From Candidatus Campbellbacteria bacterium (GTDB lineage Bacteria; Patescibacteriota; Minisyncoccia; Phycocordibacterales; EsbW-18): 64,000 nt of DNA. Numbering within the stretch: the stretch's first letter is position 1; each line of letters begins with the position of its first letter. The notes beneath the pieces are model-generated. The model was given only the letters and a program-made list of their open reading frames with translations, made no database searches and had not been told where the DNA came from. A program made the position numbers and the translations under genes. Shown piece after piece: positions 25,228-63,585 of the stretch. The DNA lies in contig CP064977.1 in assembly GCA_016699465.1 (NCBI GenBank), positions 74,096 through 138,095 of the forward strand. Reading direction: 5' to 3'.

Positions 25228-25229
25228 CT

Positions 25230-26177: not shown

Positions 26178-26192
26178 CGGTTCGCACACATA

Positions 26193-26226: not shown

Positions 26227-26231
26227 TCTAA

Positions 26232-26268
26232 TAGTATTCAACTAGTTTTTGGATTGCATTCATAAATT
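26232..26268 (-). pseudogene. recR 5'-end remnant (11 codons MNAIQKLVEYY then stop)
   Basis: Reverse complement atgaatgcaatccaaaaactagttgaatac closely matches the true recR start atgaacgcgatacaaaaactagctgaatac; its ATG overlaps the TGA of the 108-aa gene (ATGA). Confidence 0.6.
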
Positions 26269-26586: not shown

Positions 26587-26632
26587 GCGACTATTTTAGC
26601 AGATTTTTAGGGCTATTTGGGGTAACTTGACA
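26587..26632 (+). repeat. cassette-array repeat, copy 1 (46 bp promoter-proximal part ending in TTGACA)
   Basis: gcgactattttagcagatttttagggctatttggggtaacttgaca; same sequence at 28286-28332 and 29046-29091. Confidence 0.85.
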
Positions 26633-26656
26633 AGTGGTAATAATATATAGTATAAT
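26627..26656 (+). promoter_or_regulatory. sigma70-like promoter TTGACA-18-TATAAT for cassette 2
   Basis: The -35 box is contributed by the repeat; the -10 box by unique cassette sequence. Confidence 0.55.
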
Positions 26657-26719
26657 ATCTAACAGAAGCTCATCACCAGATCAGCCGTAATGGTTGGTCA
26701 AAACCGAAGGAGAAAAATC

Positions 26720-27256
26720 GTGAAGAAGATTTTCTCATTTGACGCCGAGACCAACGGACTCTGGGGACAGGCGTGGGCGATCGGCGCCCTCGTCTACGAC
26801 GAGAACGGCGTTGAAATTGCCCGATTCGTCGGCCGTCTGCCGGACTCGGCGGTGACCGACTCGTGGAGCCGGGAGAACACTCTGCCCCAGGTGCAGGGAA
26901 TCCCGGTGACCCATGAGGACTACGACTCGCTTCTCGCCTCGTTCGCCGACTTCTACAAGGCGAACAAGGACGGAGCCGACGTCGTCGTGCACATGGGGTA
27001 CATCGTGGAGGCGAAGATTCTTCGTGATCTCCACGATCGCGGCCTTATCGGCGACTGGGAGGGGCCGTACCCGCTCTACGACGTCAGCGGAAACCTGCAG
27101 GCCGCTGGTGCGGACCCCACCTCGGTGGACAAGTTCGCGGACGAGCGAGGTCTTCAGGTGGGAGTGGGTACCGACATCGTCGGAGGAACCCACAATCCGC
27201 TCTGGGATTCTGCCGCCGCGGCGGCAGTCTACCGCTACTTGGTCTACGACAAGTAG
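26720..27256 (+). CDS. DEDDh-family 3'-5' exonuclease (DnaQ/RNase T-like)
   Basis: AAGGAG SD 7 nt before GTG 26720; motif I FDAETNGL, motif III HNPLWDSAAAAAVY (H-x4-D); GC about 62%. Confidence 0.8.
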   Translation: MKKIFSFDAETNGLWGQAWAIGALVYDENGVEIARFVGRLPDSAVTDSWSRENTLPQVQGIPVTHEDYDSLLASFADFYKANKDGADVVVHMGYIVEAKILRDLHDRGLIGDWEGPYPLYDVSGNLQAAGADPTSVDKFADERGLQVGVGTDIVGGTHNPLWDSAAAAAVYRYLVYDK

Positions 27257-27296
27257 CAACGTGGGAGTTTGAGAGGACTCCGTCAACAAAACCTCT

Positions 27297-27346
27297 CCCA
27301 TCGTAGAATGTGTGTTCTACCCGATGAGTCCAAAAGGACGAAATGG
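27297..27346 (+). ncRNA. hammerhead-ribozyme-like motif (type III topology) with U4-to-C deviation; speculative
   Basis: cccaUC | GUAGAA-ugugug-UUCUAC | CCGAUGA | GUCC-aaaa-GGAC | GAAA | UGG: 14 of 15 core positions and all three stems present. Stem III is only 4 bp and competes with an upstream hairpin (gugggag/cucccau). Confidence 0.2.
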
Positions 27347-27364
27347 TTTGTTCTTTGAGAAAAT

Positions 27365-27420
27365 TCTTTCGGTTATCTCAGTGTTTGTGATTTGAAGAGA
27401 GCGTTGAGATAACCGAAAGA
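27365..27420. promoter_or_regulatory. perfect 16-bp-stem hairpin immediately upstream of the SD of the 27435 gene
   Basis: tctttcggttatctca ... tgagataaccgaaaga, exact reverse complements; A-run after, T-rich before. Confidence 0.5.
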
Positions 27421-27434
27421 AAAAAGGAGATACT

Positions 27435-28148
27435 ATGCAAAGGAAAAAAATTGAAGTGAAGAAAGGGAAGTACGCCTTTCTTGTTGACGGACTCAGAAAA
27501 GAGCCCATCAACTTTCTGCGGCATGAGCCGCTGAATGAGATTGAAATCTTACTTGGCAAGGGAGCCAAGAGTGTCGAGTACTACGGCACTTTCGGGGGAG
27601 AGGACGGGGTTCTCCTTCTAGTAGTTGAAGTGTCGTCGGATGGACCAGTTATCACAGAAGGTGGTAATCTCTTCGCGTTCTGCAAAGGGTGCGGAGAACT
27701 CATTCGGAGCGAGCACGGGTGTGTCAGAGGGTCTGATGAACCGTGCAAGGAGAAGTTCCGGTCGGGAACAAGCTTTCTCACCGCCCCGCTGGATCACCCT
27801 TGTGCCGCTCTCTACCACGCGGCACAGGACGGAAAGTTCTTGGTCGGGATTGACAACCCGATGCGAGTTCCAGATGTGCCGAGTTGGGTCTTGATTCAAA
27901 ACAGAAAGACCCACGGCGGTGGTCACCATTATCACTGGTTTGGTCGCTCTGGACTTAGTCCAGAGGGTCTCGCAGACTTCTTTCGGAGGCATCCTGCCAG
28001 TGACGCCGAAGTATCTCTCGAAGGAGAGGTTGTGGTGGTCAAATCATCACAACTCGGACCGTGGATTGGTTCGAGTGGACGTTGGGCGAAGGCCTACCAA
28101 CGTCTTGGAATTCGAGTTCAGTTTCGACCAGTTGTAGCCACCGCCTGA
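27435..28148 (+). CDS. hypothetical protein (cassette 2, second gene) with CxxC/His clusters
   Basis: AAGGAGA SD; 237 aa; GC about 58%; no family recognised. Confidence 0.55.
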   Translation: MQRKKIEVKKGKYAFLVDGLRKEPINFLRHEPLNEIEILLGKGAKSVEYYGTFGGEDGVLLLVVEVSSDGPVITEGGNLFAFCKGCGELIRSEHGCVRGSDEPCKEKFRSGTSFLTAPLDHPCAALYHAAQDGKFLVGIDNPMRVPDVPSWVLIQNRKTHGGGHHYHWFGRSGLSPEGLADFFRRHPASDAEVSLEGEVVVVKSSQLGPWIGSSGRWAKAYQRLGIRVQFRPVVATA

Positions 28149-28332
28149 TGAAACACGGGAGACCGCGCTTTCATCAGGCGGTTTTCTTATTTTTATTTTT
28201 TGAATCTACTCCACTATTCGCGCGAATTAGAGAATGGTTTTTTGGAGCTTTTGAAAGTATTCAGTTAGTTTCTGAATTGTATGCATGCGACTATTTTAGC
28301 AGATTTTTAGGGCTATTTGGGGTAACTTGACA
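28141..28332 (+). repeat. cassette-array repeat, copy 2 (terminator hairpin + recR-5'-like segment + TTGACA)
   Basis: About 93% identical over about 190 bp to 28903-29091; hairpin ccgcctgatgaaa...tttcatcaggcgg plus T-run acts as terminator for the upstream gene. Confidence 0.85.
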
Positions 28333-28408
28333 AAACAAATTATTTTTGCTAAAAAACAGATAGAACACAACATACGCTACTTGGCGTATGAACTTTTGGA
28401 GAAAAATC

Positions 28409-28885
28409 ATGAAACTGTTCCGAGGTGTGCTTATCGTCTTGACGGTAGCGTTGGTTTTCCAGGCCCTTCTCACTGTCTACAAGCATCACAAAAAGGCGGA
28501 GCAGCTGGAGAGGTTTGTGGCCGCAGAAGCGTTGGACGCGGCCGCCTCACTTGCAAACGCTCTGGAAGCCACTTATTACCAGGACGGAGGACTCGATTCT
28601 GTTGTGACCACGTGTGCCTCATCGGAGATCACCTGGACGAAGACGACACACGGGGAGTTCACAACCCGATGCAACGTCACCGGAGATTTCTACGACCCGG
28701 ACACGTACAAGACGATTACGGACGGAAAAGACACAATCCTTCCAGTGAGTCTTTTCACGAGAGTCGACGAGAGGATGCTCGTTCGACTCAAGGATGGTTG
28801 GAGGTTGCGGAGCGCCACCCTTACAGTGCTCGCGGAAGACGCCCGAGGTCGGGTGCTTGCCAAGGCGAGCAAACACCTTCGGTAG
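28409..28885 (+). CDS. hypothetical secreted/membrane-anchored protein (cassette 3)
   Basis: GGAG SD 7 nt before ATG 28409; signal/TM LFRGVLIVLTVALVF; GC-rich. Confidence 0.5.
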   Translation: MKLFRGVLIVLTVALVFQALLTVYKHHKKAEQLERFVAAEALDAAASLANALEATYYQDGGLDSVVTTCASSEITWTKTTHGEFTTRCNVTGDFYDPDTYKTITDGKDTILPVSLFTRVDERMLVRLKDGWRLRSATLTVLAEDARGRVLAKASKHLR

Positions 28886-28902
28886 TGGGCATTCAATCTC
28901 TG

Positions 28903-29091
28903 CCGCCTGACAGACACGGAAAACCGCGCTTTGTCTGGCGGTTTTCTTATTTTTATTTTTTGAATCTACTCCACTATTCGCGCGAATTAGAGAATGGTTT
29001 TTTGGAACTTTTGAAAGTATTCAGCTAGTTTCTGGATTGTATGCATGTGACTATTTTAGCAGATTTTTAGGGCTCTTTGGGGTAACTTGAC
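28903..29091 (+). repeat. cassette-array repeat, copy 3
   Basis: Hairpin ccgcctgacagac...gtctgtctggcgg carries compensatory substitutions relative to copy 2; ends in TTGACG -35 with TATACT -10 17 nt downstream. Confidence 0.85.
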
Positions 29092-29164
29092 GTGGGACGA
29101 TTTATGACTTATACTTTTTACGGAACCGAACGAAAGAACAACTTCGACTCAGGAGGCCGAGACA

Positions 29165-29494
29165 ATGGCGACTCAAGGGGTGGTAAGTGTCGTGAAGAAC
29201 GGGGTGGTGGTGCTCAAGGTTGTCGCAGGCTGCGATGGTTACAACGCGGCCCTGCTCGGCAACACGATTCGGGGAATGGGAATCATTCCAGATGCGGAGA
29301 ACGCCTACGACCTGGCGTTCAAGCTCCGTTTCGGCGAGGTCGAGTGCCTCGTCGCGATGGACCAGAGGACCGAGGTGTTTCGGGGTCACGACGAGATCGA
29401 CTCGACGAGGTATCGAGCCACCTTCAGCGACCCGCGCTTCAACCCAAGGTGGGAGCAGGGAACCGCCGACTTCGTGGAGGTGGTCGAGTTCTAG
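29165..29494 (+). CDS. hypothetical protein (cassette 4), 109 aa
   Basis: GGAGG SD; GC about 62%; antisense ORFs rejected. Confidence 0.5.
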   Translation: MATQGVVSVVKNGVVVLKVVAGCDGYNAALLGNTIRGMGIIPDAENAYDLAFKLRFGEVECLVAMDQRTEVFRGHDEIDSTRYRATFSDPRFNPRWEQGTADFVEVVEF

Positions 29495-29528
29495 AATCAA
29501 CACGATGACCCAGAACGAGCTGAACTAT

Positions 29529-29660
29529 ACCGTCTGACAAACACGGAAAACCGCGCTTTCATCAGGCGGTTTTCTTATTTTTATTTTTGAATCTACTCCA
29601 CTATTCGCGCGAATTAGAGAATGGTTGCCGGGGAATTTCTGAAAATATTCAGTTGTCTTA
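29529..29660 (+). repeat. cassette-array repeat, copy 4 (degenerate)
   Basis: Terminator hairpin plus ttgaatctactccactattcgcgcgaattagagaatggtt shared with copies 2 and 3, then a diverged recR-like segment (gaatattttcagaaattcc). Confidence 0.7.
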
Positions 29661-29732
29661 ATTAAATTTTACAAAAAGAAACCGCCTCGTCTGGGAACGG
29701 GACGGTTCCATGTGACGGGGCGGGGGCAGGTG

Positions 29733-47019: not shown

Positions 47020-48420
47020 CTACTCTTTTTTCTTTAAAACGGACAATCCAAGATCTCTCAAAACAATTGGATCAATTGGTCCCGGAGCATGCATGACGGC
47101 GGTCTTTCCTTTTCCTGTCATAGGAAACGCCTGCACTTCGCGCAGGTAGGATTCACCTGTGGCAATCATGACACCGCGTTCAATACCCAATCCAATACCA
47201 CCGTGTGGAGGAACTCCGTGTGAAAAAGCCTCAAGCATGTGGCCTACACTGTCTTTAATTTGCTCAGGTGTGTACCCCATGATTTTGTACGTTGCCTCAA
47301 GAATTTCTGGTCGGTGTGCACGAATACTTCCCCCTCCTGTTTCAAATCCGTTACAGACGAGGTCATACTGCTGTGTGACAATGTTTTCAATGTTTTCACC
47401 CTTCATGTGTGATTCGAGGTGATCTTCTCGTGGCATTGAAAAAGGGTTGTGGGTAAATGTCCATTTGCCGTCGTCGGTTTTTTCAAAGAATGGAAAGTCA
47501 GTTACCCAGGCGTACGCAAGAATCCCCTTCTCTTTTTCTTCTGGTGTGCGCATATCAAACTTATCTGCACCATACGTTTTCATGGCTTCTGCATAGGTGA
47601 TACGTGGAAATGGTTTTTGTTTGATGGTCTTACCCAAACTTTCCATGACAAAGGTAATCATACCTTCGATGGTATCCATGACTTCGTCACGTGTGACGAA
47701 TGACATTTCAAAGTCGAGTTGTGTGTGTTCATATCCACGGTCGGCACGAAGGTCTTCATCACGCACACATCGTGCAAGTTGAAAATACTTTTCAAAACCA
47801 GAAGTCATTAAGAGTTGCTTGTACTGTTGTGGTGATTGTGGCAATGCATAAAAGTTTCCTGGGGCGTGACGAGATGGTACTAAGAAGTCACGAGAACCTT
47901 CTGGTGTTGATTGTGTGAGGAGTGGTGTTTCGATTTCAACAAATCCCTGCTTAAACAAGTATTCACGACACTTCTGCACAAACTCACTTCGGATGCGAAT
48001 ATTTTTTTGCATGCGGGCAGAGCGGAGGTCTACATATCGGTATGCTAGTCGCGTTTCCTCATTGAGTCCCATGGTGTCTTGTGTCAAATCAAACGGAGGA
48101 GTCGTTGCTTCTGCAAGAACGGTAATTGATTCAGCGACACACTCGAGTGCACCGTTTTGTTCACCTTCATTGACAAGATTATCAGGACGTTTTTTGATGA
48201 GTCCTGTAAGTGTGATAACCCATTCAGACCTAAGAGTGTTTGCGACAGCGAGTGCCTCGGCATTTTTAGGCGTTACAACCACCTGCACCTTCCCGGTCTC
48301 ATCACGAACATCAATAAAAATAAGCTTTCCATGGTCGCGTCGTACGGAAACCCAACCTGCAATCGTAATACTACTGTCAATATGTTTTTCGAGGTCTTGT
48401 ATGTAAATACGGTTTTTCAT
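47020..48420 (-). CDS. aspS: aspartate--tRNA ligase, short form without GAD insertion domain
   Basis: Class-II motifs including FRDEDLRADR and GGIGLGIER-like; 466 aa. Confidence 0.9.
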   Translation of the reverse strand: MKNRIYIQDLEKHIDSSITIAGWVSVRRDHGKLIFIDVRDETGKVQVVVTPKNAEALAVANTLRSEWVITLTGLIKKRPDNLVNEGEQNGALECVAESITVLAEATTPPFDLTQDTMGLNEETRLAYRYVDLRSARMQKNIRIRSEFVQKCREYLFKQGFVEIETPLLTQSTPEGSRDFLVPSRHAPGNFYALPQSPQQYKQLLMTSGFEKYFQLARCVRDEDLRADRGYEHTQLDFEMSFVTRDEVMDTIEGMITFVMESLGKTIKQKPFPRITYAEAMKTYGADKFDMRTPEEKEKGILAYAWVTDFPFFEKTDDGKWTFTHNPFSMPREDHLESHMKGENIENIVTQQYDLVCNGFETGGGSIRAHRPEILEATYKIMGYTPEQIKDSVGHMLEAFSHGVPPHGGIGLGIERGVMIATGESYLREVQAFPMTGKGKTAVMHAPGPIDPIVLRDLGLSVLKKKE

Positions 48421-48512
48421 ATGTGTTCAAGTATATAGGTTTTGTGCCCATTTCCAAAGAGGATAAAGTAACCTAAAAAATGTAAAACCGCCGGACCTTT
48501 CTCAAGGCCGGC
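48277..48512. repeat. 236-bp direct repeat, copy A (aspS 5' end and its upstream terminator)
   Basis: Identical except 1 nt to 52349-52584. Confidence 0.9.
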
Positions 48513-48546
48513 GGTCAGAATCACGGTAGTTCCTCAGTACCGTGAC

Positions 48547-49782
48547 TTAGAAGAGCAGGTAGGGTCGCCACGCGTCCGGGTTCTGCTTGACCATCATGCA
48601 GAACCCGTAGATGAGGGCTGAGAGAATCAGCCCCACCGTAGCGTACGTACGCGCGTGTTTCATGGGAATGTCGGTGAATTTCTCCAGTAGGTAGAGGGCG
48701 AAGAACGTCCCCCCTATCTTTTGGAGCTCGGGGATGCTCCATGTGGATCCGACGAACAGTGCGAGTACCCCACCGACGATGGTGATGAGCTGTTGTGCAA
48801 CATACCCTTCACCATTTCGGTAGTATCGAGAAGATGCGATGAGGAGACCCAGGAAGCCGATGAAGCTTCCCATAAAGAGGGCTCCGGACTCGAACACCGA
48901 AAGGTACGGGACACTGTTCCCAAACACTCGCAGGAAGACGAATCCCGTCAAGATGACGAGGCTTGCGCCAGTTGCCCGACCCAACGAGTCTTCGTCTTTG
49001 AATCCAAGGACGTACCCCATGGGAATGACTGCCCCAGAGAAACCCAAGGACGCCATGAGTGCAATGACCGCGAAGAACCCCACGAGCGAACTCGTGAAAA
49101 TCATCGCGACCAAGCCCCACATGAGAAACAGAAAGAAAGCGATACCCTCTTCAGAATTCCAGTTACGCCTTGTTGCGGTAAAAGCCACCGCACCACCAAG
49201 GAGGAGGCATCCTGTCAGCGCGACGTACGAAGCGGTGCCGCTTCCGAGTGTGGCCGCGAATGCGATGAGTCCGAGTGAACCCAGGTAGCAAGCTACCTCG
49301 TACACCAACATCGGAATATCGAGAAACCGCTTCACCAGCCATGTGATGAGATCGCGCAACAGATAGAGTAGCGAGAGGACGCCGATGATGATCGCCACGA
49401 GCCACGCGATGTTCACGAAGGTGACGAAACCTGCAAACTTCTGCAGCCTCGTCAGATGCACTGTTGGCGCCGGGGACGGCGTCGACAAGAGGACGTTCAG
49501 CTCCATGAGCTTCACGTCCCGTCCGGTAATCTGCTTCGCCTGGGCGAGATATCGGTCGATTCCCTGCCTCGCCTGTGATTCGGTGATGATGCCGGCGCTG
49601 GCGTTCTCATCGAGGACGCGTACCCCGTACGCGAGCTCTCTGAGCTCGGCCGGCGGCTCGTCGCCCCAGATTGGAGTGACGAATGCAACAAGGGCGAGAA
49701 TGATGGAAAGCAAAAGTCTGTCTCTCATGATGGTCTTCCTTTCTTCTGTTGTTTTTTTGAAGAACGACGAATCCAGCCACAA
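48547..49782 (-). CDS. hypothetical polytopic membrane protein, GC-rich
   Basis: 411 aa, more than 10 TM helices, GC about 57%. Confidence 0.55.
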   Translation of the reverse strand: MWLDSSFFKKTTEERKTIMRDRLLLSIILALVAFVTPIWGDEPPAELRELAYGVRVLDENASAGIITESQARQGIDRYLAQAKQITGRDVKLMELNVLLSTPSPAPTVHLTRLQKFAGFVTFVNIAWLVAIIIGVLSLLYLLRDLITWLVKRFLDIPMLVYEVACYLGSLGLIAFAATLGSGTASYVALTGCLLLGGAVAFTATRRNWNSEEGIAFFLFLMWGLVAMIFTSSLVGFFAVIALMASLGFSGAVIPMGYVLGFKDEDSLGRATGASLVILTGFVFLRVFGNSVPYLSVFESGALFMGSFIGFLGLLIASSRYYRNGEGYVAQQLITIVGGVLALFVGSTWSIPELQKIGGTFFALYLLEKFTDIPMKHARTYATVGLILSALIYGFCMMVKQNPDAWRPYLLF

Positions 49783-49944
49783 TAGCTGGATTTCTGTGAA
49801 TATTTTTACACCATTTTATACATTATGTCAACTATCTTCTTTTTAAAAGTGCTGGTATACCAAGGCATCTATTGTGTCTATCAAAACGCACATATAAAAA
49901 AGCTAAAAAGTGAATTTGATGTGCAAATCAGCTATAAAATAATC

Positions 49945-51771
49945 TCACGCATTTTTTGCATCGAGATATGAACGCGCCTGACTCTCCCACATCTGTGCAT
50001 AGTAGCCGTTTGCAGCTACAAGCTTTGCGTGCGGGCCAATCTCAACAAGCTCACCCTGACGGAAGACGGCGATGCGGTCTGCCCCACGTACGGTATTGAA
50101 TCGATGCGAAACGAGAAAGAGCGTACTACCTTCGACAGCTGTTTCAATCTGACTGAAGAATTTTTCTTCCGCGATGGCGTCCACTGACGCAGTTGGTTCG
50201 TCGAGAATGATGACGAGACCGTTGCGGTAGAGGGTACGTGCGATTGCGAGGCGTTGTTGTTGTCCGTGTGACAACTCAACACCGTGTTCATACTCGACTC
50301 CAATTTGGGCGTCATACTTTTCTGGGAATTCTTCGATGAATGAGTGTGCTCCAGCGAGTTCTGATACAATCCGAGCTCGTTCGGGTGAAATTTTTGCATC
50401 AGAACGCCCCATTGCAATCGCTTCAGTCACAGAAAAATTGTGAATGAAGTACTCTTGGAGAAGAATTGAAAGGTATGAACCCCACTCGTGAAGACCGATC
50501 TTTGTGAGTGGCACGTCATTGATGAGAATTACTCCTTCCGTCGGGTCGTAGATACGAGCCAACAACTTCAGGAGTGTTGTCTTCCCTGCACCATTTTCAC
50601 CAACGAGCGCCATACGTTCGCCTGGTTCAATGGTGAGGTTAACGTGTCTGAGCACCCACACGTCACTGTCCTGGTATCGGAACGATACGTCTCGAAATTC
50701 AATACGAGGAGGAGTCGTGAGTGAAAGGTGTGTTGGATGTGGAGCCTCAATAATCACGGGTTTTGTATCAAGTACGGTGAAGATGTCGTGTGCGTAGAGT
50801 GTTTGTTCGTACTGTTGTGCGATATTGCCAAAGAGGCTTGTAATCATACCGGCAAACTGTCCGAGAACACTCGTCATGAAGACAATGTCACCAATACCTG
50901 CGTTTCCTCCAGCAACCATTTTGACAACGAGAAAGAATGCGTAGCCGATACCACAGGCACCAACGAGTGCCGCAAGGACACTTGTCCACAGACGTGTTCG
51001 GTCAACTCCAATTTGTTCGCGTTTGAACGCCTCAATAATTGATTTTGCGCGCTCGATGAGATGCTCGGCACCTTGAAGGAGCTTTGTTTGAATGACAGGC
51101 TTTCTTCCTTGAAGATGATTGCGAATACTCCCGTATAACTTCTGTCGTGGACTATTCTCAGACCAAATGAACCACTGCTTGTTACCATAGCGCATCTGAA
51201 CATATAGTGTTGGCATGAGACCAACAAGCACGACGACGAAGATGATCGGGTAGCGAACAGCGAGTCCGGCTGAAACAAGAATACCGATGAGCAGTGATAC
51301 GTTGCCGAATTGTTGGTCAGCAACATTGACGATCGGATAGTTTCCTCGGTCGAATGCTCGCGTTATCAGATTTTGAAACTCAGCATTCTCGTAGTGGGCG
51401 ATGTCAATCTCGGCACGCTTACGCATGATTTTGAGATCGATACCTTGCTGTGCCTCCACGAACCATCTCTTGTCGAAGTAGGTCAGGAATGCACCTGCAA
51501 GACGTGACAACGCCCATGAGCTCGCGTACAACATGACCAAGAACACAGGAATGACAAGTCCACGGGAAATTGAACCCGCAACTGCATCAATGATAGAACC
51601 TGTGATTTTTGCCTGTGCCAGTGGCAATACGTTGGTGATGGTTGTCAGTACAAGAATGAGTACTGCGTACCCGGGCTTGAAGCCCCACGCAAACTTACAG
51701 GAACGGATGACCGTTCCCATGAGATTTCGTGCTGTCTGCATGATTTTGTTCTCCTCCTTGGTTTGTGTCAT
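49945..51771 (-). CDS. ABC exporter, fused permease/ATPase (MsbA-like)
   Basis: 6-TM domain plus Walker A GENGAGKTTLLKL, ABC signature LSHGQQQR, Walker B ILDEPT. Confidence 0.85.
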   Translation of the reverse strand: MTQTKEENKIMQTARNLMGTVIRSCKFAWGFKPGYAVLILVLTTITNVLPLAQAKITGSIIDAVAGSISRGLVIPVFLVMLYASSWALSRLAGAFLTYFDKRWFVEAQQGIDLKIMRKRAEIDIAHYENAEFQNLITRAFDRGNYPIVNVADQQFGNVSLLIGILVSAGLAVRYPIIFVVVLVGLMPTLYVQMRYGNKQWFIWSENSPRQKLYGSIRNHLQGRKPVIQTKLLQGAEHLIERAKSIIEAFKREQIGVDRTRLWTSVLAALVGACGIGYAFFLVVKMVAGGNAGIGDIVFMTSVLGQFAGMITSLFGNIAQQYEQTLYAHDIFTVLDTKPVIIEAPHPTHLSLTTPPRIEFRDVSFRYQDSDVWVLRHVNLTIEPGERMALVGENGAGKTTLLKLLARIYDPTEGVILINDVPLTKIGLHEWGSYLSILLQEYFIHNFSVTEAIAMGRSDAKISPERARIVSELAGAHSFIEEFPEKYDAQIGVEYEHGVELSHGQQQRLAIARTLYRNGLVIILDEPTASVDAIAEEKFFSQIETAVEGSTLFLVSHRFNTVRGADRIAVFRQGELVEIGPHAKLVAANGYYAQMWESQARSYLDAKNA

Positions 51772-51798
51772 ATATACATTCTCGGACAGAAGATACTA

Positions 51799-52167
51799 TC
51801 ATACTGACTGTTGGAGTTTGTGATAGTTTGTGTACGAAATTGCGAGGACACCTAGCGCAATGAGTGGAAAAAGTACTGGCGCACCAAATCCATCAACGGC
51901 AATAATACTGAGTCCTGCGAATATAAAATCAAAACCAAACCCTGCGTATGCCCACTCTTTTACACGAGCTGGTACTTTTGGAATCATGAGTGCGAGAGAA
52001 CCGAGAACTTTGAAGACGGTCAAAAGTGTTATGAAATAAATCGGATAGCCGAGGTGTGTGATGCCGTCAATCGACATTTGCGATTGAGATGTTAATGCTG
52101 GCATAACTCCTTCAAAAAGGAAGATTATTGTCGTTGAAATCCAAAATGCTACTTTTGCTTTTTTCAT
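51799..52167 (-). CDS. DoxX-family membrane protein
   Basis: Four TM helices, DoxX-like pattern. Confidence 0.65.
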   Translation of the reverse strand: MKKAKVAFWISTTIIFLFEGVMPALTSQSQMSIDGITHLGYPIYFITLLTVFKVLGSLALMIPKVPARVKEWAYAGFGFDFIFAGLSIIAVDGFGAPVLFPLIALGVLAISYTNYHKLQQSV

Positions 52168-52348
52168 TAGTTATATATGTTATTCGCTTACAATAATCTT
52201 AAAACCTCCGTACGCCATCTTTTTCATATCAAATGGCATGTCGTTCTTCTTTTCTGGGTGTTTCTTCTGGTATTCTTCCATGCCCTTCATCACCTCTTTA
52301 TTAATTCTGTTGCGGTCCGCCTTAGACTTGAAGACAATCCAAGAAAAA

Positions 52349-52584
52349 AACCACCTACACCTTCCCGGTCTCATCACGAACATCAATAAAAATAAGCTTT
52401 CCATGGTCGCGTCGTACGGAAACCCAACCTGCAATCGTAATACTACTGTCAATATGTTTTTCGAGGTCTTGTATGTAAATACGGTTTTTCATATGTGTTC
52501 AAGTATATAGGTTTTGTGCCCATTTCCAAAGAGGATAAAGTAACCTAAAAAATGTAAAACCGCCGGACCTTTCTCAAGGCCGGC
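52349..52584. repeat. 236-bp direct repeat, copy B
   Basis: See copy A. Confidence 0.9.
52352..52489 (-). pseudogene. aspS 5' fragment (46 codons then stop; duplicated with the repeat)
   Basis: Encodes [45 protein letters not shown] then TAG where real aspS continues. Confidence 0.8.
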
Positions 52585-52662
52585 GGTCGAAACCATAACG
52601 GTTTCGCAGTACTGTGGTTAGCTGTGGCGACTAAAAACTGCAATCTGCAAGTAAACCGAAAT

Positions 52663-53310
52663 CTACGACCTTGCGTCTCGAACGAGCTGCGACACGATGG
52701 CGTCTGGAACATCCCCGAACGAATCGTAGAACATTCCCGTCGCGGGTGCTGATGAGAGGGTCGATTGGCGCCAGAAGATGATCTCGTCGACCATGATATC
52801 CGAGGACTTGAGATCCCGCGGAATCACTGGAACAGCGAGAACAATCTCCTTCACACCGAAACGACGTCGCAGCATGAGTGAAGCGGCCAGAGCCGTCCTG
52901 CCGCTGACGATCCCATCGTCACAGAGCAGAACCTTCTCCCCGACCTCAAACGACTCGCCGTTGTAGAGATGCTGACGCTGATGTGCTTTCTCCAGGAGCT
53001 GGTTTGCCCCGGGTATCTTGAGTGTCGAGACGTTTTGAATGTACATCAGCCGCAAGGGCTGCAGGTTCTCCATCTCAACCAACACACCCTCACCGAACGG
53101 AGTCACGATCAATTGGAAGGATTTTCCGTCTCCCATATCGTCGACGACGAGTGCGTTGAGAGAGATACCTGCGTCGGTAGCGATGCGCGCCGCGATAGGT
53201 ACTCCTCCTCGTGCCAGACCAACGGCGACGAAACTCGAAACGTTCGGAAGGTCCTGCAGGACTTCAGCGCTCAGCTTTGCTGCGGCGTCCGTCCGATCTA
53301 CAAAAAACAT
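52663..53310 (-). CDS. type I phosphoribosyltransferase domain protein
   Basis: PRPP-binding motif VLLCDDGIVSGRT. Confidence 0.7.
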   Translation of the reverse strand: MFFVDRTDAAAKLSAEVLQDLPNVSSFVAVGLARGGVPIAARIATDAGISLNALVVDDMGDGKSFQLIVTPFGEGVLVEMENLQPLRLMYIQNVSTLKIPGANQLLEKAHQRQHLYNGESFEVGEKVLLCDDGIVSGRTALAASLMLRRRFGVKEIVLAVPVIPRDLKSSDIMVDEIIFWRQSTLSSAPATGMFYDSFGDVPDAIVSQLVRDARS

Positions 53311-53336
53311 CTCTCTCCCCCCTTTTTTCTAAAAGG

Positions 53337-53365
53337 AAAGGAGGGGCTCGTCACCGAGCCCCTCC
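53337..53365 (-). terminator. terminator for the GC-rich gene upstream of the PRTase gene
   Basis: ggaggggctcg-tcac-cgagcccctcc followed on the minus strand by a T-rich tract. Confidence 0.55.
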
Positions 53366-53392
53366 GGAGTTGTCCTCTGCCGACCGGTGTCG

Positions 53393-53737
53393 CTAGCAGG
53401 AGGAGATGTGGTCGCTGGCCGCGGTCTTCTTGATGCGATCGAGGTCCAGGCCGATGTAGGTGGCGAGCCGCTGGGCGCCGTCGGCGATCACGTGGTTGGC
53501 GATCGAGACGGCGAGCAGCTGCACGCCGGGACGGGCGTGGACGGGGATCGGTTGGCCTGCCAACTGCGCCCGAACGATCAGAGCCGAGTGACCGAGGGCC
53601 TGCTCGGCGGCCGCGTGCTTGTCGAGCCCGTTGGCCTGGAAGTCCCACTCCATCCCGCACTTGTGGATCGGATAGCGCGGATCGATGTTCTTGGTAGCCG
53701 GGACTTCCGGCTTGTGCCCCGCGTTGGACTTCGTCAT
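53393..53737 (-). CDS. GC-rich hypothetical protein (114 aa)
   Basis: GGAGAG SD; GC about 64%; alternative frames give Arg-rich junk and are rejected. Confidence 0.5.
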   Translation of the reverse strand: MTKSNAGHKPEVPATKNIDPRYPIHKCGMEWDFQANGLDKHAAAEQALGHSALIVRAQLAGQPIPVHARPGVQLLAVSIANHVIADGAQRLATYIGLDLDRIKKTAASDHISSC

Positions 53738-54079
53738 GGTGAGTCTCTCCCTGTGACAAGGACCGTCGAGATTGACGTCCGTTTGGAATGCTAGCATGTC
53801 TAATATATTCTGTCAAGTACTCCGGAACGATGTAACAAAGAGCAAAAATTTAGCATTGTTAGTCCCGATTTCAATAGACTAAATAGAAACGGCGCCGCGA
53901 TGACTTCGTCTTGGCTGAGTCGGTTGACTTGGTCAGGCCCAGCGGAGACGTTTTCTTCAGAGAAGGTGGAACCATAAAAAATAAAATTATTCCTGCAACG
54001 TACCTAAAAAGCCACAAAAGAAAACCCCAACCCAACGCATCTTTATAAAGATGTGTATACATAGAGTGTGTACCTTATA

Positions 54080-55012
54080 TTAATATGCTGCGTGCATTGA
54101 TGAATAAACTTCTGCTGTTTTTTCAGTATCTTGTTTACTTTCTAAAAATACATGTGCGTCTGGGCTGTATCTTGCTGCGAGGTCAAGTACGAGTTGATAT
54201 TTTGTATTCAACGTCTCTCCGTAGTGTGATGGTGCATACAAATGAATAACTCGAATCCGTGTTCCAAATATTTTAAACCAGGAAGTAAGTTCAGCTTCCC
54301 AGTCTGCAGGATCAACATCGTGAAGAGCGTGGTTTATATCTAGTGTAATTCCGATATGATCTTCAACAGTTTCGGTGGTAACACCATTTGCCATACAGTA
54401 TTCGGAAATATACTGTACGAGCGTGTGTATATCTTCAGGAGTTTGTCCCCACGCTCCCTCGGCACCTTTTTTCGGCATATTTTCAATCGCAATTGAACAT
54501 GAAGGAGTATTTTCAGTGACGTGATTTGTAAAACTTTGTGCACACAAAGAAGCATAGTGCGTTAGTAGTGCGTGTTGTGCTTCGGCGGATAATTCTTTCC
54601 ATAGTTGGTCGCGGAGTGCCAGTGGGTGCATCGTATACGACTCGATTCCAAGTTCTGAGGCATACTCAAGAGTAGTGCTCATATGTTTTTTGTTTTGTAT
54701 CTCAAGGGTTTCAGGATCTATCTTGGGCGTTTCTCCGTGAATTGAAATATCAACATCTGGATGTGCCTCACGGAACGCACGAAGTGTATCACACGCTTCT
54801 ATAATTTCTTCTTCGCTTCTTTTTCTAAAATCAAATTGCACAGAAGGAAGCCCGAGGGTTTCAGCAAGATGAATGTGGTCTAAAAGACGCGTGTGGGTTC
54901 CGTCTTTTTGTTCTGTACAAAAAACAATACCAAGATTCTCGTGAAGTTCTTGGCGTTTTTCTGCAAACTGTTCTGTTTCGGTGGAATGTGTGGGTACAGA
55001 TTCAAAAGACAT
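54080..55012 (-). CDS. xylose-isomerase-like TIM-barrel protein (sugar-phosphate isomerase/AP-endonuclease-2 fold)
   Basis: His/Glu/Asp metal-ligand pattern (IHGE, LDINHALHDVD); assignment moderate. Confidence 0.55.
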   Translation of the reverse strand: MSFESVPTHSTETEQFAEKRQELHENLGIVFCTEQKDGTHTRLLDHIHLAETLGLPSVQFDFRKRSEEEIIEACDTLRAFREAHPDVDISIHGETPKIDPETLEIQNKKHMSTTLEYASELGIESYTMHPLALRDQLWKELSAEAQHALLTHYASLCAQSFTNHVTENTPSCSIAIENMPKKGAEGAWGQTPEDIHTLVQYISEYCMANGVTTETVEDHIGITLDINHALHDVDPADWEAELTSWFKIFGTRIRVIHLYAPSHYGETLNTKYQLVLDLAARYSPDAHVFLESKQDTEKTAEVYSSMHAAY

Positions 55013-55016
55013 ACAA

Positions 55017-55982
55017 TTACAAAATCCCTACCTTTTCGCGGATTTCTTTCATTTTTTCTTGTGCGTGGGGACGGATTTTATCTCGTCCCTCAGAAATAAC
55101 GCGGTTTACCAACTTAGTATCGCTTGCAATTGTTGCTCGTTTCTCTCGAAGAGGGGCAATAAATGCGTCAAGGTCTTCGATTAATGTTTCCTTAAGTGTC
55201 TTAAAGCTAGATATATTCGCTTCGTAGAAAGGTTTGAGTTCGGCTTCTGGTTTAAAAAGTGTATGAATTGCAAAAAGGTTCTGTGGAAATTCTCCTCCCG
55301 AATTTGTCACGATAGACATAACTGCCTTTATGATTTCTTCGCGTGTCGCAAAGAGTGGAATGGTATTGTTGTAGCTTTTGCTCATCTTTTGTCCGTCAGT
55401 ACCAAGTACAATTCCCTGCTCTTTCAAAATAAGAGGCTCAGGAACAGTAAACGTCTCACCAAAGGTAAGGTTAAACTTCTGTGCGATGTCACGGGCATAC
55501 TCCACGTGCTGTTTTTGGTCTGCGCCAACAGGTACAACATCTGCATTAGGAAGCAAAATATCTGCCGCCATAAGAACCGGGTAATCAAAAAGTCCCACTG
55601 TCGCTTCCTTTCCTTTTGCGACTGCATCTTTGTATGCGTGAGCGCGTTGCAAATATGGAACAGTGACCAGTGTATTAAAAATCCACGTCAGCTCAGTTAC
55701 TTCTGGAATATCTGATTGAATGAAGAGTGTTGTTTTCTCTGGATCAATGCCAATTGCCAAGTAATCAATAATCACATCACGCGTATCTTGTGCGAGCGTT
55801 TGTGCATCCTGTACGCCAATGAGTGCGTGATAGTTGGCAACAAAAATATAATTCTCATGTGTTTCTTGCAGTTCAACAAATTGCTTCATCGCGCCAAAAT
55901 AGTTTCCGATATGTGGTCGTCCTGTTGGTTTTACACCAGAGAGTGCAACTTTCTTTTCTTTTGTTGAACCGATACCAAACAT
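55017..55982 (-). CDS. trpS: tryptophan--tRNA ligase
   Basis: GVKPTGRPHIGN (HIGH) and KMSKS motifs. Confidence 0.9.
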   Translation of the reverse strand: MFGIGSTKEKKVALSGVKPTGRPHIGNYFGAMKQFVELQETHENYIFVANYHALIGVQDAQTLAQDTRDVIIDYLAIGIDPEKTTLFIQSDIPEVTELTWIFNTLVTVPYLQRAHAYKDAVAKGKEATVGLFDYPVLMAADILLPNADVVPVGADQKQHVEYARDIAQKFNLTFGETFTVPEPLILKEQGIVLGTDGQKMSKSYNNTIPLFATREEIIKAVMSIVTNSGGEFPQNLFAIHTLFKPEAELKPFYEANISSFKTLKETLIEDLDAFIAPLREKRATIASDTKLVNRVISEGRDKIRPHAQEKMKEIREKVGIL

Positions 55983-56018: not shown

Positions 56019-57299
56019 TTAGCTTATAGAAATGTGAGAAAGTAAGTCACCCGCGGATACGCGCTCTTGTTTCATAGTATCGCGATCACGAATGGTAAGT
56101 GTTCCATCTTCAAGTGTTTGGTGATCAACAGTAACACACACAGGTGTTCCAATCTCATCTTGTCGGCGGTAGCGCTTTCCTATTGAACCGGATTCGTCGT
56201 ACAACACGCGTGCACTCTTGGAGAGTTCTTTGTATATTTCTTGTGCTTTTTCAGACAACCCATCTTTCTTCATTAAAGGCAATACAGCCACTTGGTAGGG
56301 CGCAATTGCTGCTGGTAGACCCAACACCACTCGAACATCATCTTCAACAGGTTCCTCTCGGTATGCATCACACAAGACGGCAAGAACAGTTCTATCAACG
56401 CCAAGAGAAGGTTCAATAACATGTGGAATAAAGCGTTTTTTTGCTTCCTCATCAAAATAACTCAAATCAACACTCGAGTGTTCAGCGTGAGCTCCGAGGT
56501 CGTAGTCGGTGCGGTATGCAAGTCCGTAAAGTTCTTTCTGACCAAATGGATAGTCAAATTCAAAGTCAATGGTGCGTTTTGAATAGAATGCAAGATCTTC
56601 AGGAGCGATTTCGTGTTCGTGGACATGTTCACTTTTGAGTCCGATTTCAGCGGTCCATGCAAGCATCTGCTTTCTCCAATCTTCAAATGCTGCTTCCCAA
56701 TACTCAGGTGCAACAAAGTACTCCACTTCCATTTGCTCAAATTCACGCACACGGAACAAAAAGTCGCGCGGAGCAATTTCATTGCGGAATGCTTTTCCAA
56801 TTTGTCCCAATCCAAACGGCAACTTAGGATGCAGGGAGTCCATCACGTTCTTGAAGTTTACAAACATTCCTCCAGCAGTTTCAGGACGAAGATATACATC
56901 AGATGAAGAGTCGTCATCAGCACCAATGGCTGTCTTAAACATCATGTTAAATTGCTTCACATCACCAAGTGCTCCCCCACAGTCGGGACATTTCTTTGCG
57001 TCATCAAGCTGATCAGCACGAAATCGGTGTTTACACTTTGTACACGCAACGAGTGGGTCTGAAAATCCAGACACGTGTCCAGACGCTACCCACACTTTTG
57101 GATTCATTAAAATAGCAGCATCCACACCGTACATATCATTTCGGTCATGAATAAATCGTTTCCACCAGAGTGCTTTGATGTTGTTTTTGAGCTCTACACC
57201 TAAAGGTCCGTAATCAAATGTTCCTGCAAGACCGCCGTAAATTTCGGAACCTTGGAAGATAAAGCCGCGCCGTTTGCACAGCGATACTATCTTTTCCAT
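56019..57299 (-). CDS. glyQS: glycine--tRNA ligase (alpha2 dimeric type)
   Basis: Class-II GlyRS N-terminus IVSLCKRRGFIFQGSEIYGG; start at MEKIV with GAAGG SD. Confidence 0.9.
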   Translation of the reverse strand: MEKIVSLCKRRGFIFQGSEIYGGLAGTFDYGPLGVELKNNIKALWWKRFIHDRNDMYGVDAAILMNPKVWVASGHVSGFSDPLVACTKCKHRFRADQLDDAKKCPDCGGALGDVKQFNMMFKTAIGADDDSSSDVYLRPETAGGMFVNFKNVMDSLHPKLPFGLGQIGKAFRNEIAPRDFLFRVREFEQMEVEYFVAPEYWEAAFEDWRKQMLAWTAEIGLKSEHVHEHEIAPEDLAFYSKRTIDFEFDYPFGQKELYGLAYRTDYDLGAHAEHSSVDLSYFDEEAKKRFIPHVIEPSLGVDRTVLAVLCDAYREEPVEDDVRVVLGLPAAIAPYQVAVLPLMKKDGLSEKAQEIYKELSKSARVLYDESGSIGKRYRRQDEIGTPVCVTVDHQTLEDGTLTIRDRDTMKQERVSAGDLLSHISIS

Positions 57300-57535
57300 C
57301 ACGTTAGAGCCTTCGTCTTTGGTCATCCCATTAGAGATAGGAAATGGAATACATTTCCGTATCGGTTAGATTTTTAAAACAAAACTAGATATATTCGTTG
57401 CCCTGTTTCCCATTCGAATCCAAAACTGTGGAATCTCTAACGGGACCAGTACAAAAATAATACCATACGGAACGTAAAAAGCCCGCCATGGAAATGGTGG
57501 GCTCGAGTTGCGAAAAGAACATCTGAGAAAGTTGG

Positions 57536-58644: not shown

Positions 58645-58984
58645 ATACATGCAACAAACAGTCACATGGTTTTTCTTTGAGAATTATCCTCTGTTCTTTG
58701 ATAGTGTTGATGAACACTTTTTGACTACCAGAACCAGTTGCTAATCGTTTATCAAGTGGTGTGTGGTGTTGGTATCCTCGGCGAGAGAATTCTTTTACCA
58801 ACGCTTCATGGCGTGTGTAGAGCGCCTTTTTCTTTCCTACCCAACGCAGTGTTTCTGGATGATGTGCGTACCCACCCTTCCCTTTGTGTTTTGTGAGAAT
58901 GTTCCATAGACCATGAAGCTCGCGATGTTCGGCGAGCAAATGTTTTCTGCATAAATGTTGTGGATGTATGTCCCAAACGCGCAT
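58643..58984 (-). CDS. pyrimidine-dimer DNA glycosylase (T4 endonuclease V / DenV family)
   Basis: N-terminus MRVWDIHPQHLCRKHLLAEHRELHGLW parallels T4 DenV MTRINLxxxxELxDQHLLAEHRELPRIF. Confidence 0.75.
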   Translation of the reverse strand: MRVWDIHPQHLCRKHLLAEHRELHGLWNILTKHKGKGGYAHHPETLRWVGKKKALYTRHEALVKEFSRRGYQHHTPLDKRLATGSGSQKVFINTIKEQRIILKEKPCDCLLHV

Positions 58985-59001
58985 GCGATTCTGCAGAATC
59001 G

Positions 59002-59030
59002 CGCCACGTACTGTTGATTGTTACGTGGCG
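59002..59030 (-). promoter_or_regulatory. conserved palindromic element CGCCACGTA-N11-TACGTGGCG upstream of the denV-like gene
   Basis: 9-bp inverted repeat; related copies at 59961-59989 and a half-site at 59047-59060. Confidence 0.45.
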
Positions 59031-59544: not shown

Positions 59545-59943
59545 TTATTTAAGTGCAGTAAGTATGAAGTATGCAATAACGCTTGTGAGTGCAGTAACTA
59601 GTACTCCCCACCCCATATCAATGAGTGTCATAGACGTAGGCCATCCAGCAATAGTTGCATGATTGGTGAGATCGTATGCACCGTATGCGACGAGTCCCAA
59701 GAGTGCCCCTCGCCAGAGTGCTTCAATCCAGGATGCAGATGAAATAGCCGGCATAACTGCGAGTAGGAGTACACCAAGTGCATAGAGAGGATAAAAGAAC
59801 GCGACCGGAATGAGGTTGATTGATTTGCTAAAAAGAAATCCCATGTGTTCTGCATAAAACTTTTTTGCCAACACAAGAATCCAGAGTGCATCAAGTGCAG
59901 TGAGTGGTAACAGTGTTGCAAGATAGGCTAGGAGTGTTTGCAT
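59545..59943 (-). CDS. membrane protein (DUF2177-like)
   Basis: Start moved to MQTLL (59943) because the longer start would overlap the conserved palindromic element. Confidence 0.5.
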   Translation of the reverse strand: MQTLLAYLATLLPLTALDALWILVLAKKFYAEHMGFLFSKSINLIPVAFFYPLYALGVLLLAVMPAISSASWIEALWRGALLGLVAYGAYDLTNHATIAGWPTSMTLIDMGWGVLVTALTSVIAYFILTALK

Positions 59944-59979
59944 ACGATTTAGTGAAATCGCGCCGTGTATCATCAATTG

Positions 59980-60393
59980 TTACGCGGCGGAATTTAGGTA
60001 CGTTATGGTTAGTTGTAATGTTGTCGCGAAAGAAACCCAGAGAAGATATGGAATATTCGCGTACACAATCCAGCGTAAATCTGCTGAAGCGTGCCAGAGT
60101 GACCATAGTGCCCAAATCAATGTTGCGAGCACAAGCAGCACGTCCACTGCCGCGAGAAGGTTGTTCCTTAGACCAAACTGGAGTGGTGTAAATGCAAAAT
60201 TAAAAACAAGATTGAGTGCGAATGGTAGCGCAATCATCCAAGGAAGTTGTTTAGTGAATGCTTTGTAGAATACGGTACTGAACGTAACTGCAATAATTGC
60301 GTACAAAAAAGTCCACGCTGGGCCAAAGAGCCAACTCGGTGGCGCCCATGATGGTTTGATTAACGTTGAGTACCAGGTGTAGGTTGGATTCAT
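59980..60393 (-). CDS. tspO: TspO/MBR tryptophan-rich sensory protein
   Basis: IKPSWAPPSWLFGPAWTFLY N-terminal signature, five TM helices. Confidence 0.8.
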   Translation of the reverse strand: MNPTYTWYSTLIKPSWAPPSWLFGPAWTFLYAIIAVTFSTVFYKAFTKQLPWMIALPFALNLVFNFAFTPLQFGLRNNLLAAVDVLLVLATLIWALWSLWHASADLRWIVYANIPYLLWVSFATTLQLTITYLNSAA

Positions 60394-60549
60394 ATGTGAT
60401 TGAGTACAATCATGCCGTGAGGCCGATGTAACAAAATTAGATTATTACGTGACCTCATTCTAGCACTTTTTGTAAGAAAAGTTTTTAATTTCAAAAATGT
60501 AAAGAGCCCCAGCAACTGTGCTGGGACTCGGATGTCCGAATGCGTCGGA
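60394..60549. repeat. 156-bp terminator+promoter+5'UTR module, copy A (upstream of tspO)
   Basis: About 95% identical to 63315-63465; contains hairpin cccagca-actg-tgctggg, extended -10 TGcTAGAAT (minus strand) and GTAACA-N9-TGTTAC palindrome. Confidence 0.85.
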
Positions 60550-62660: not shown

Positions 62661-63314
62661 TTAGTTAAACCTTTTCCATATTCCCTGGGTAACAACTTCT
62701 ACGTTGTCGCCAACAACTTGCACCGCTGACTGATCATCAAGCGCATACAGAGGTACATCAACACCTTGTGCTACCTCGTCTATCAATTCAGATGCTCTTG
62801 GAAAGTAAGGAGAGTTCATATGTGGCACCACAAGAAAATCAACGAACCCAAGACCTTCATTACTTGCACCATCAAGAATAGGTTCATTGTAGAGTCGTTG
62901 CATTTCTTTCTCTAGTAGATTCGGAGAAGTAACCATGCTACCGGCACTGATACCTACATATACACGGCTCTTTAATAATTCAGGTAGAGCTTCAATTAAG
63001 CCAGATTTTTTTATTTGAGCCATCAAGTACGAGGTATTACCTCCACCAAACAACAACACGTCGGCGTGTTGCAATCGTGGAAGCCAGACTTCTTTTGACA
63101 CGGCTGCGATATCTACAATATCAACTTCCTTAAAACCAAGTTCTGTGCATTTTGCCAAGTCACTGATGAGCCACTCTTTATCTCCTTCTTCAACATTTGC
63201 AGCGGTTGGTATAAAGGCCAGTGTTGCGTCAATAAAATCTTTCCCGACGAGTTTACGTAGAGTGTCAATAATCGTTTTGTTTGTAAATCCACCTGAAGTT
63301 AGTAAGAGTTTCAT
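62661..63314 (-). CDS. S51-family peptidase (dipeptidase E-like)
   Basis: MKLLLTSGGF start, GGGNT and SAGS catalytic-region motifs; track start 63434 lies in the repeated leader. Confidence 0.75.
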   Translation of the reverse strand: MKLLLTSGGFTNKTIIDTLRKLVGKDFIDATLAFIPTAANVEEGDKEWLISDLAKCTELGFKEVDIVDIAAVSKEVWLPRLQHADVLLFGGGNTSYLMAQIKKSGLIEALPELLKSRVYVGISAGSMVTSPNLLEKEMQRLYNEPILDGASNEGLGFVDFLVVPHMNSPYFPRASELIDEVAQGVDVPLYALDDQSAVQVVGDNVEVVTQGIWKRFN

Positions 63315-63465
63315 GTGATTGAGCACAATCATGCCGTGAGGCCGATGTAACAAAATTAGATTGTTACGTGACCTCATTCTAGCACTTTTTGTAGGAAAAG
63401 TTTTTAATTTCAAAAATGTAAAGAGCCCCAGCAACTGTGCTGAGGTTTTGGTGTCCGAATGCGTC
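63315..63465. repeat. 156-bp terminator+promoter+5'UTR module, copy B (upstream of the S51 peptidase gene)
   Basis: See copy A. Confidence 0.85.
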
Positions 63466-63585
63466 AGAAGTAGGTTTTTAATAGAAAAAAGTGTGACCTC
63501 AAGAATTTTTTATCATTTTTGACAAAAGTATATATTCAAAGTATATTTATAAAAGAACCGTTCTTGTCAACAAAGGAGAAATCAT

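Follow-up and report, generated by a model that had tools for sequence, protein, structure and literature searches.

Chromosomal hotspots of horizontal gene transfer (HGT) are fixed intervals between core genes that hold differing accessory gene sets in close relatives, and integrase-driven islands, such as those of the dusA-specific integrases, integrate at the 5′ end of a gene, which they restore. Here we describe a locus with features of both, located in a 64,000-nucleotide stretch of Candidatus Campbellbacteria bacterium (GenBank assembly GCA_016699465.1, contig CP064977.1, positions 74,096 to 138,095 of the forward strand; hereafter the window, whose own numbering is used throughout). At this locus the terminator hairpin, promoter-like site and 5′ end of the aminoacyl-tRNA synthetase gene aspS are present twice, once in the intact gene and once about 4 kb upstream, on the far side of a segment of accessory genes.

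Two further processes described in the literature come closest to it. Homology-facilitated illegitimate recombination (HFIR; de Vries & Wackernagel 2002, Prudhomme 2002, Meier & Wackernagel 2003, summarised in PMC6382021) is known from naturally competent bacteria and leaves junctions with microhomologies of 3-10 bp (PMC6382021). Insertion with long target duplication (ILTD) of restriction-modification genes (Nobusato 2000; Furuta 2010, PMC2853133) is recognized by direct repeats of >30 bp, an insert of <20 kb and no mobility genes, has repeats of 46-423 bp and is known mostly from competent species (PMC2853133). The aspS locus resembles HFIR in that one side would have been resolved in conserved homology and the other is a microhomology join (6-8 bp at a junction that we call J3, 10 bp at a second one, J1), and in that foreign genes have been added without mobile-element machinery in a phylum with demonstrated or predicted competence. 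Like ILTD, it shows a few kb of accessory genes, none of them an integrase or transposase gene, between direct repeats whose 240 bp fall within the published span of 46-423 bp, and a related genome has the repeated sequence only once. The scar belongs to this known general kind, HFIR/ILTD-like, in a hotspot of a member of the Candidate Phyla Radiation (CPR), and its probable origin is microhomology-mediated illegitimate recombination of the HFIR type in the hypervariable trpS-aspS interval, followed by homogenization of the two copies.

The duplicated 5′ end of aspS

The direct repeats lie at 48277-48516 (copy A, within intact aspS) and 52349-52588 (copy B), on the minus strand like all genes around the locus. 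Repeat search, pairwise alignment and base-by-base comparison agree on a length of 240 bp and an identity of 99.6%, the sole mismatch being G at 48285 against A at 52357 (plus strand). The copies are spaced by 4072 bp and enclose a segment of 3,832 bp. The next-best repeats that the search found in the 9-kb region reach at most 26 nt, with identities of 67-81%, so that chance is excluded as an explanation of the 240-bp pair. Weaker homology, 28 nt at ~64% identity, continues past the copies to 48544 and 52616, respectively.

Each copy contains a GC-rich hairpin of 30 nt (hp; 48516-48487 in copy A and 52588-52559 in copy B) followed by the U-run UUUUACAUUUUUU and with a fold z of about -4, a promoter-like site TTGGAA-16-TATACT (48457-48430 and 52529-52502, respectively), and nucleotides 1-144 of aspS, that is, 48 codons (48420-48277 in copy A). 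The intact gene (47020-48420) encodes 466 aa. In the upstream copy B the mismatch changes aspS codon 46 from CAG to TAG (52357-52355), which leaves a stub open reading frame of 45 codons (52492-52355) that ends 6 nt ahead of the point where the copies diverge. On their upstream sides the copies are preceded by two further, homologous hairpins, h1 beside copy A (48521-48545), which stands downstream of the stop codon of a membrane protein gene, and its diverged counterpart h1′ beside copy B (about 52593-52617), at ~64% identity. The hairpins belong to no known RNA family, as Rfam at the gathering threshold returned only four tRNAs over the whole window.

The duplication of the aspS 5′ end is confirmed as real and yields a dead stub in addition to an intact aspS. 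The initial annotation of this DNA, made from the sequence alone, had recognized near-perfect repeats with a single difference, each carrying the terminator hairpin upstream of aspS, and this stands, folding having recovered the hairpin in both copies; its repeat length of 236 bp and its count of 46 codons are to be corrected to 240 bp and 48 codons. The 5′ pseudogene fragment that it placed next to a T7 run is a dead stub as proposed, but the TAG falls 6 nt before the divergence at which the fragment was thought to stop, and the T run, present at 52350-52344, is native DUF1428 sequence.

The sequence immediately following the stub is the C-terminal fragment of a DUF1428 gene (52180-52348), which was missing from the gene list of the initial annotation. 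It encodes 56 residues that match positions 76-131 of the 131-aa protein of a relative, L001, at 93% identity. The gene lacks its first ~73 codons; the break falls near codon 74, to which aspS codon 48 is now joined. When intact aspS, the junction and the L001 DUF1428 gene are aligned three ways, the switch lies within the hexamer GTGGTT (J3, 52349-52354), which is common to aspS codons 47-48 and to DUF1428 ~codons 73-75 of L001 and extends to 8 bp if one mismatch is allowed. J3 is thus an illegitimate join of two truncated genes at a microhomology and not an element end. As the insert starts where one truncated gene is joined to another, the repeats do not bound a discrete insert.

Read support comes from two Logan short-read contigs, L017 and L018, from a k=31 assembly of run SRR11674038; they apparently represent the same strain, possibly the very sample of the window, and are to be taken as an independent assembly, not as an independent sample. 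L017 corresponds to window 60418-52559 at 100% and terminates 30 nt inside copy B, whereas L018 corresponds to 52387-48487 at 100%, begins 30 nt upstream of the T variant, crosses the stub/DUF1428 junction including that variant, and terminates 30 nt inside copy A. Breaks at k-1 bases into the repeats are what a k=31 graph gives where a repeat truly has two copies, and because L018 spans the stub/DUF1428 junction, its 31-mers exist in the reads and the junction is no assembly artefact. All consistent linear paths through the graph give the assembled order, the only alternative being a circle of 4,072 bp made of L018 and one repeat. The read support that the initial annotation had wished to see is therefore provided for both repeat flanks and for the novel junction.

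It follows that a false concatenation of two co-existing hotspot alleles, or a false duplication of the repeat, is highly improbable. Such an error is conceivable in a metagenome-assembled contig, which the source of the window is (811 kb, encoding Campbellbacteria proteins that match AspRS and the PRTase described below at 100%), and at a hotspot that is polymorphic among related populations. However, the stub/DUF1428 junction, T variant included, and the h1′-hp and h1-hp adjacencies all recur at 100% in the independent k=31 assembly, an assembler could not generate an overlap of 6-8 bp, and no consistent linear path departs from the assembled order.

The trpS-aspS interval in relatives and the ancestry of copy A

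Loci of relatives were collected by tracing AspRS homologues at 91-96% identity to their contigs. The order 3′ of aspS is constant (scpA-scpB-dacA-mraY-ftsW-murG-gltX), and the gap between trpS and aspS holds at least five different gene sets: trpS is directly adjacent in L003, and upstream of aspS we find trpS-SET-3dmu-DUF1428-DoxX-136aa-ABC-75aa in L001, glycosyltransferase genes in L002, ABC in L007, DUF1761-DoxX in L008 and trpS-AP_endo-123aa-membrane in L014. As these upstream gene sets differ almost every time, the interval is a hypervariable hotspot. The DUF1428-DoxX-ABC block is intact upstream of aspS in L001, and L007 has the ABC gene in that place. Several of the relatives' contigs stop 140-590 bp upstream of aspS, and such assembly breaks at its edge are a further likeness of the interval to described HGT hotspots. 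Unlike these, it keeps layered border relics (a terminator relic and the aspS stub) that document the joining mechanism. No aspS 5′ stub was present in the 70 relatives' loci, the duplication being specific to this strain, and the hairpin sequence was not found in GTDB genomes or JGI metagenomes.

The closest relative, L014, is collinear with window 58984-38671 at 91-97% nucleotide identity, except for 53964-49845, where 4.12 kb of the window stand in place of 279 bp. Its order is trpS-AP_endo-123aa-membrane-h1-hp-aspS, with one copy of the repeat unit. This single copy is collinear downstream, and its upstream neighbor is the membrane gene, which is the flank of copy A, not the phosphoribosyltransferase-domain gene (PRTase) that flanks copy B. 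The initial annotation had predicted that relatives without the insert would show an empty site of the form PRTase-terminator-aspS; this adjacency was not found, and the PRTase occurs in no other locus. It has no close homologue anywhere (best 47%), and the PRTase allele is absent from the GTDB genomes searched.

The difference between the window and L014 ends at two junctions, J1 and J4, neither of which coincides with a repeat end. At J1 (53880-53974, with the adjoining relic) the 123-aa gene known from L014 breaks off after ~33 codons at TGGTTCCACC, a microhomology of 10 bp, and the next ~95 bp show homology to the element and terminator right arm found ahead of aspS in L001. J1 is thus a second microhomology junction together with a relic of an older pre-aspS border. 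J4 is a zone (49845-49923) between the end of the homology to the ABC block of L001 and L007 and the start of the homology to the promoter of the L014 membrane gene. We also observed that L014 itself (11364-11485 of its contig) carries an insertion of ~125 bp between the aspS promoter and the ATG, which is absent in the aligned window, L001, L002 and L003.

A close examination of intact aspS revealed a break in its ancestry. Nucleotides 1-144 of the window gene are only 83.3% identical to L014 (24 mismatches) and 88.2% to L007, while nucleotides 145-432 are 96.2% identical to L014 and 76-80% to all other relatives. The last dense L014 mismatch is at 48280, the repeat ends at 48277, and the next mismatch comes 63 nt on. 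Upstream of copy A, h1 and the 3′ end of the membrane gene are L014-like again. This points to the 240-bp unit inside intact aspS being a foreign patch with respect to its L014-like flanks, and the ends of the patch match both ends of the identity between the copies, one being the homology stop at J3 and the other the drop to 64%. A core without differences, a flank beside it that is homologous but diverged, and an ancestry break together argue for gene conversion, as a simple duplication would not predict the break. The near-identity of the copies therefore probably reflects conversion of copy A by copy B rather than a young insertion, in which case the 99.6% identity would date the homogenization and not the acquisition. 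The recent event that the initial annotation had read from this near-identity is not borne out.

Models for the origin of the locus

No integrase, recombinase or transposase was identified by Pfam, NCBIfam and PADLOC scans of all open reading frames in 47020-55012. The precomputed Pfam annotation of the relatives' flanks likewise contains no integrase or transposase, and no recombinase gene of the kind that the initial annotation had suggested looking for at the insert ends. A transposon would be at odds with the lack of a transposase domain, the weakness of the only inverted matches (20-24 nt) and a duplication as long as 240 bp. Nor does the locus look like an integron cassette, as there is no integrase and the repeats consist of a gene 5′ end, promoter and terminator rather than of attC-like imperfect palindromes. 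The insert and its flanks show no similarity to plasmids or phages, and the PRTase and membrane protein had no match in IMG/VR, so that a plasmid or phage origin was discarded. Tandem duplication of a resident segment was likewise rejected, everything between the repeats being single-copy.

A site-specific integrative island that entered the 5′ end of aspS (and of recR, see below) and brought a replacement 5′ end with promoter deserves next to no credence. Superficially the pattern fits, with the 5′ end and promoter regenerated, a stub left behind and similar stubs at recR, and as in the dusA-type islands the aspS 5′ end is intact and a displaced 5′ fragment sits at the other border. Unlike in those islands, there is no integrase and no conserved att core, stub length is variable and the junction falls inside a truncated cargo gene. 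Neither the segment and its surroundings nor the relatives' flanks hold an integrase or recombinase, one end is a truncated DUF1428 gene at a microhomology, the stubs have 13-14 codons at recR against 48 at aspS with no shared motif, the 70 relatives have no aspS stub, and an identity of 240 bp far exceeds typical att cores. The comparison with L014 speaks in the same sense, as the difference at 53964-49845 is not bounded by the repeats and a PRTase-hp-aspS adjacency was not found.

In an ILTD or Campbell-type event, a fragment of 3.83 kb (′DUF1428-DoxX-ABC-membrane-h1, the first gene truncated) would have entered a PRTase-h1′-hp-aspS chromosome, either by an insertion that duplicated the 240-bp target or as a circle closed at GTGGTT that underwent a single homologous crossover in hp-aspS 1-48, and identical repeats would arise directly. 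The 240-bp repeats, a segment of <20 kb and the lack of mobility genes agree with the operational definition of ILTD (PMC2853133), a circle closed at GTGGTT would account for both the sharp repeat end and J3, and a unit of 4,072 bp would agree with the short-read graph. We nevertheless consider this origin unlikely. An empty PRTase-hp-aspS site exists in none of the relatives; L014 has membrane-h1-hp-aspS, its single copy being preceded by the flank of copy A rather than that of copy B, its differences end at J1 and J4, and the simple empty site expected of ILTD is thus not seen. The model also leaves unexplained why a unit that is not L014-like extends exactly up to the repeat end between L014-like flanks. 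The known cargo of ILTD consists of restriction-modification systems, which the aspS cargo is not, and one insert end here is a truncated gene.

The HFIR-like route that we favor would have begun with DNA from a sister strain, carrying different hotspot genes and ending in the upstream/5′ region of aspS, that recombined with the resident chromosome. One end would have been resolved by homology in conserved flanking genes, for which both flanks are possible anchors (94% identity to L014 on the trpS side, 93-97% on the aspS side). The other end would have been joined illegitimately at the 6-8 bp microhomology GTGGTT, fusing aspS codon 48 to the middle of the resident DUF1428 gene. Because the resident aspS would keep its promoter and 5′ end, the product would be a viable cell with two copies of terminator, promoter and aspS 1-48, and gene conversion, later or at the same time, would then homogenize the copies over their exact shared length. 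This reading draws directly on the repeat, the microhomology junction, the lack of mobility genes, the diversity of the hotspot, the older relic with its second junction and the ancestry break; what we infer from them is that the DNA entered by natural transformation, how the events were oriented and ordered, and that conversion took place. Natural competence has been demonstrated in Saccharibacteria (PMC10633639), and competence genes have been reported as prevalent in Patescibacteria (PMC12455944).

Several points weigh against this route. The competence of Campbellbacteria would follow by analogy from the literature on the phylum. Neither parent allele, PRTase-h1′-hp-aspS without the block or DUF1428-DoxX-ABC-membrane-hp-aspS, occurs in any collection searched; unlike in HFIR experiments, the donor and recipient alleles were not observed, and the process is read from sequence only. 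At least three events are required (J1, J4, and J3 plus conversion), and the available alleles do not fix their order. The described experimental HFIR products usually delete recipient DNA beside the anchor, whereas the aspS locus duplicates part of the anchor gene instead. HFIR does not need the later gene conversion that is called for here by the 99.6% identity, and conversion between 240-bp repeats that were initially ~15% diverged would need relaxed mismatch control. The 5′-end replacement could in principle be that of L014, in which case the coincidence with the repeat end would be due to chance; over aspS nucleotides 1-144 the window and L014 are about equally distant from L007.

Surrounding genes, repeated modules and implications

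The genes enclosed by the repeats are those listed in the initial annotation, namely a GC-rich membrane protein, an ABC exporter and a DoxX protein. The DoxX_2 family membrane protein (Pfam; 51799-52167, 122 aa) belongs to a block that is orthologous in L001 and L008. The ABC exporter (49945-51771, 608 aa) is a fusion of transmembrane and nucleotide-binding domains, MsbA-like but below all curated cut-offs, and its gene is ~80% identical in nucleotides to the ABC gene beside aspS in L001 and L007. The polytopic membrane protein (48547-49782, 411 aa) has a signal peptide and about nine transmembrane helices, and its gene has 55.9% GC against a window mean of 44.2%. Its L014 ortholog stands directly upstream of aspS. 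A recent import from outside the phylum was considered for this gene and rejected, since the family is found mainly in Patescibacteria and the L014 ortholog is equally GC-rich. The middle of the gene (49605-48650) is 70-80% identical to L014 in nucleotides and both of its ends 93-96%, a mosaic pointing to allelic replacement within the gene or to a surface protein under diversifying selection.

Upstream of copy B, the orphan PRTase gene (52663-53310, 215 aa, 56% GC) is followed outward by a small GC-rich (65%) hypothetical gene at 53393-53797, with a promoter-like site at 53816-53788 and a terminator-like hairpin at 53365-53340. The Logan gene call in this place is on the opposite strand; the minus-strand frame of 134 aa, with 21 homologues at E<=1e-3 (best 61%), is probably the true gene, given these real homologues, the promoter-like site and the terminator. 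Beyond J1 lies the conserved left flank (54080-55982), which comprises a xylose-isomerase-like TIM-barrel gene (55012-54080) and trpS (55982-55017) and is 94% identical in nucleotides to L014. A role in defense was also considered for the locus and dropped, as PADLOC gave only a sub-threshold ShosT-like match for the PRTase and generic ATPase matches for the ABC protein. Upstream of trpS, a class II aminoacyl-tRNA synthetase gene (56019-57326; tRNA-synt_2b and HGTP_anticodon) is only 47% identical in amino acids to the syntenic L014 gene, while its flanks are 91-94% identical in nucleotides. A distant allele appears to have replaced the gene in situ, and a gene at 47% between flanks at 91-94% speaks for intense allelic replacement in the region.

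The initial annotation had also seen the same signature at the recR locus (24048-29700) and had proposed a common integration mechanism. The recR 5′ stubs with promoter copies are real: they are located at 26263, 28286 and 29046, upstream of the real recR start at 24656 on the minus strand, and the promoter copies at 26565-26633, 28265-28333 and 29025-29093. The three stubs are diverged and have 13-14 codons each. One junction and an antisense terminator recur in two of them and in a third, partial copy (29525-29626), and this junction belongs to a repeated module of ~200 bp between single plus-strand cargo genes, so that the recR locus looks like a cassette array. These stubs end at other codons than the one at aspS, and a common mechanism finds no support in stubs of 13-14 against 48 codons with neither a motif nor a site in common. 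A comparison of the aspS and recR junctions for a shared or Chi-like sequence gave no convincing common motif. A tRNA gene is also present in the recR locus, at 25155-25227.

Elsewhere in the window, a 156-bp repeat (94% identity) at 60394-60549 and 63313-63468, composed of a terminator hairpin, promoter and ATG, precedes TspO (59980-60393) and peptidase S51 (62661-63312), genes unrelated to each other, and contains the start of the short-read contig L017. A 46-nt motif with a palindrome (about TGTGATTT.GCGAAATCACA) occurs at 12672-12717, 58984-59029 and 59943-59988, directly upstream of three minus-strand genes, including those of a pyrimidine-dimer DNA glycosylase and a DUF2177 membrane protein, and may be a shared operator.

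Repeated modules that combine a terminator and promoter with the 5′ stub of a core gene are found in the window at aspS twice, at recR three or four times and as the TspO/peptidase S51 promoter twice. That duplicated modules recur but differ in their positions and junctions speaks for recombination of a general, not a site-specific, kind. It is a speculative and distinctly improbable idea that modules of terminator, promoter and 5′ stub serve as homologous handles of an integrase-independent cassette exchange in Campbellbacteria. If it were true, cassettes flanked by such modules would loop out by RecA and be taken up by competent relatives, where they would re-enter by homologous recombination at the promoter and 5′ end of the same core gene, gain a promoter and build up arrays anchored in core genes.

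As to the consequences of the rearrangement at aspS, the stub would be non-functional as an open reading frame of 45 codons, and the intact aspS with its own promoter is presumably the reason why the rearrangement is tolerated. The promoter of copy B is predicted to precede now the promoter-less ′DUF1428-DoxX-ABC genes, a block that would have lost its upstream genes. The direct repeats would also expose the 4,072-bp unit to precise loss or amplification mediated by RecA, and the unit is best regarded as unstable. In genome annotations, pseudogene fragment is the appropriate label for both the 45-codon aspS stub and the truncated DUF1428 gene. Patescibacteria, the members of the CPR, have tiny genomes with few recognizable mobile elements and yet much gene exchange. 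The locus provides a natural example, resolved to the base pair, of accessory genes added beside an essential gene without a recombinase, and it illustrates that near-identical flanking repeats need not indicate a young insertion.

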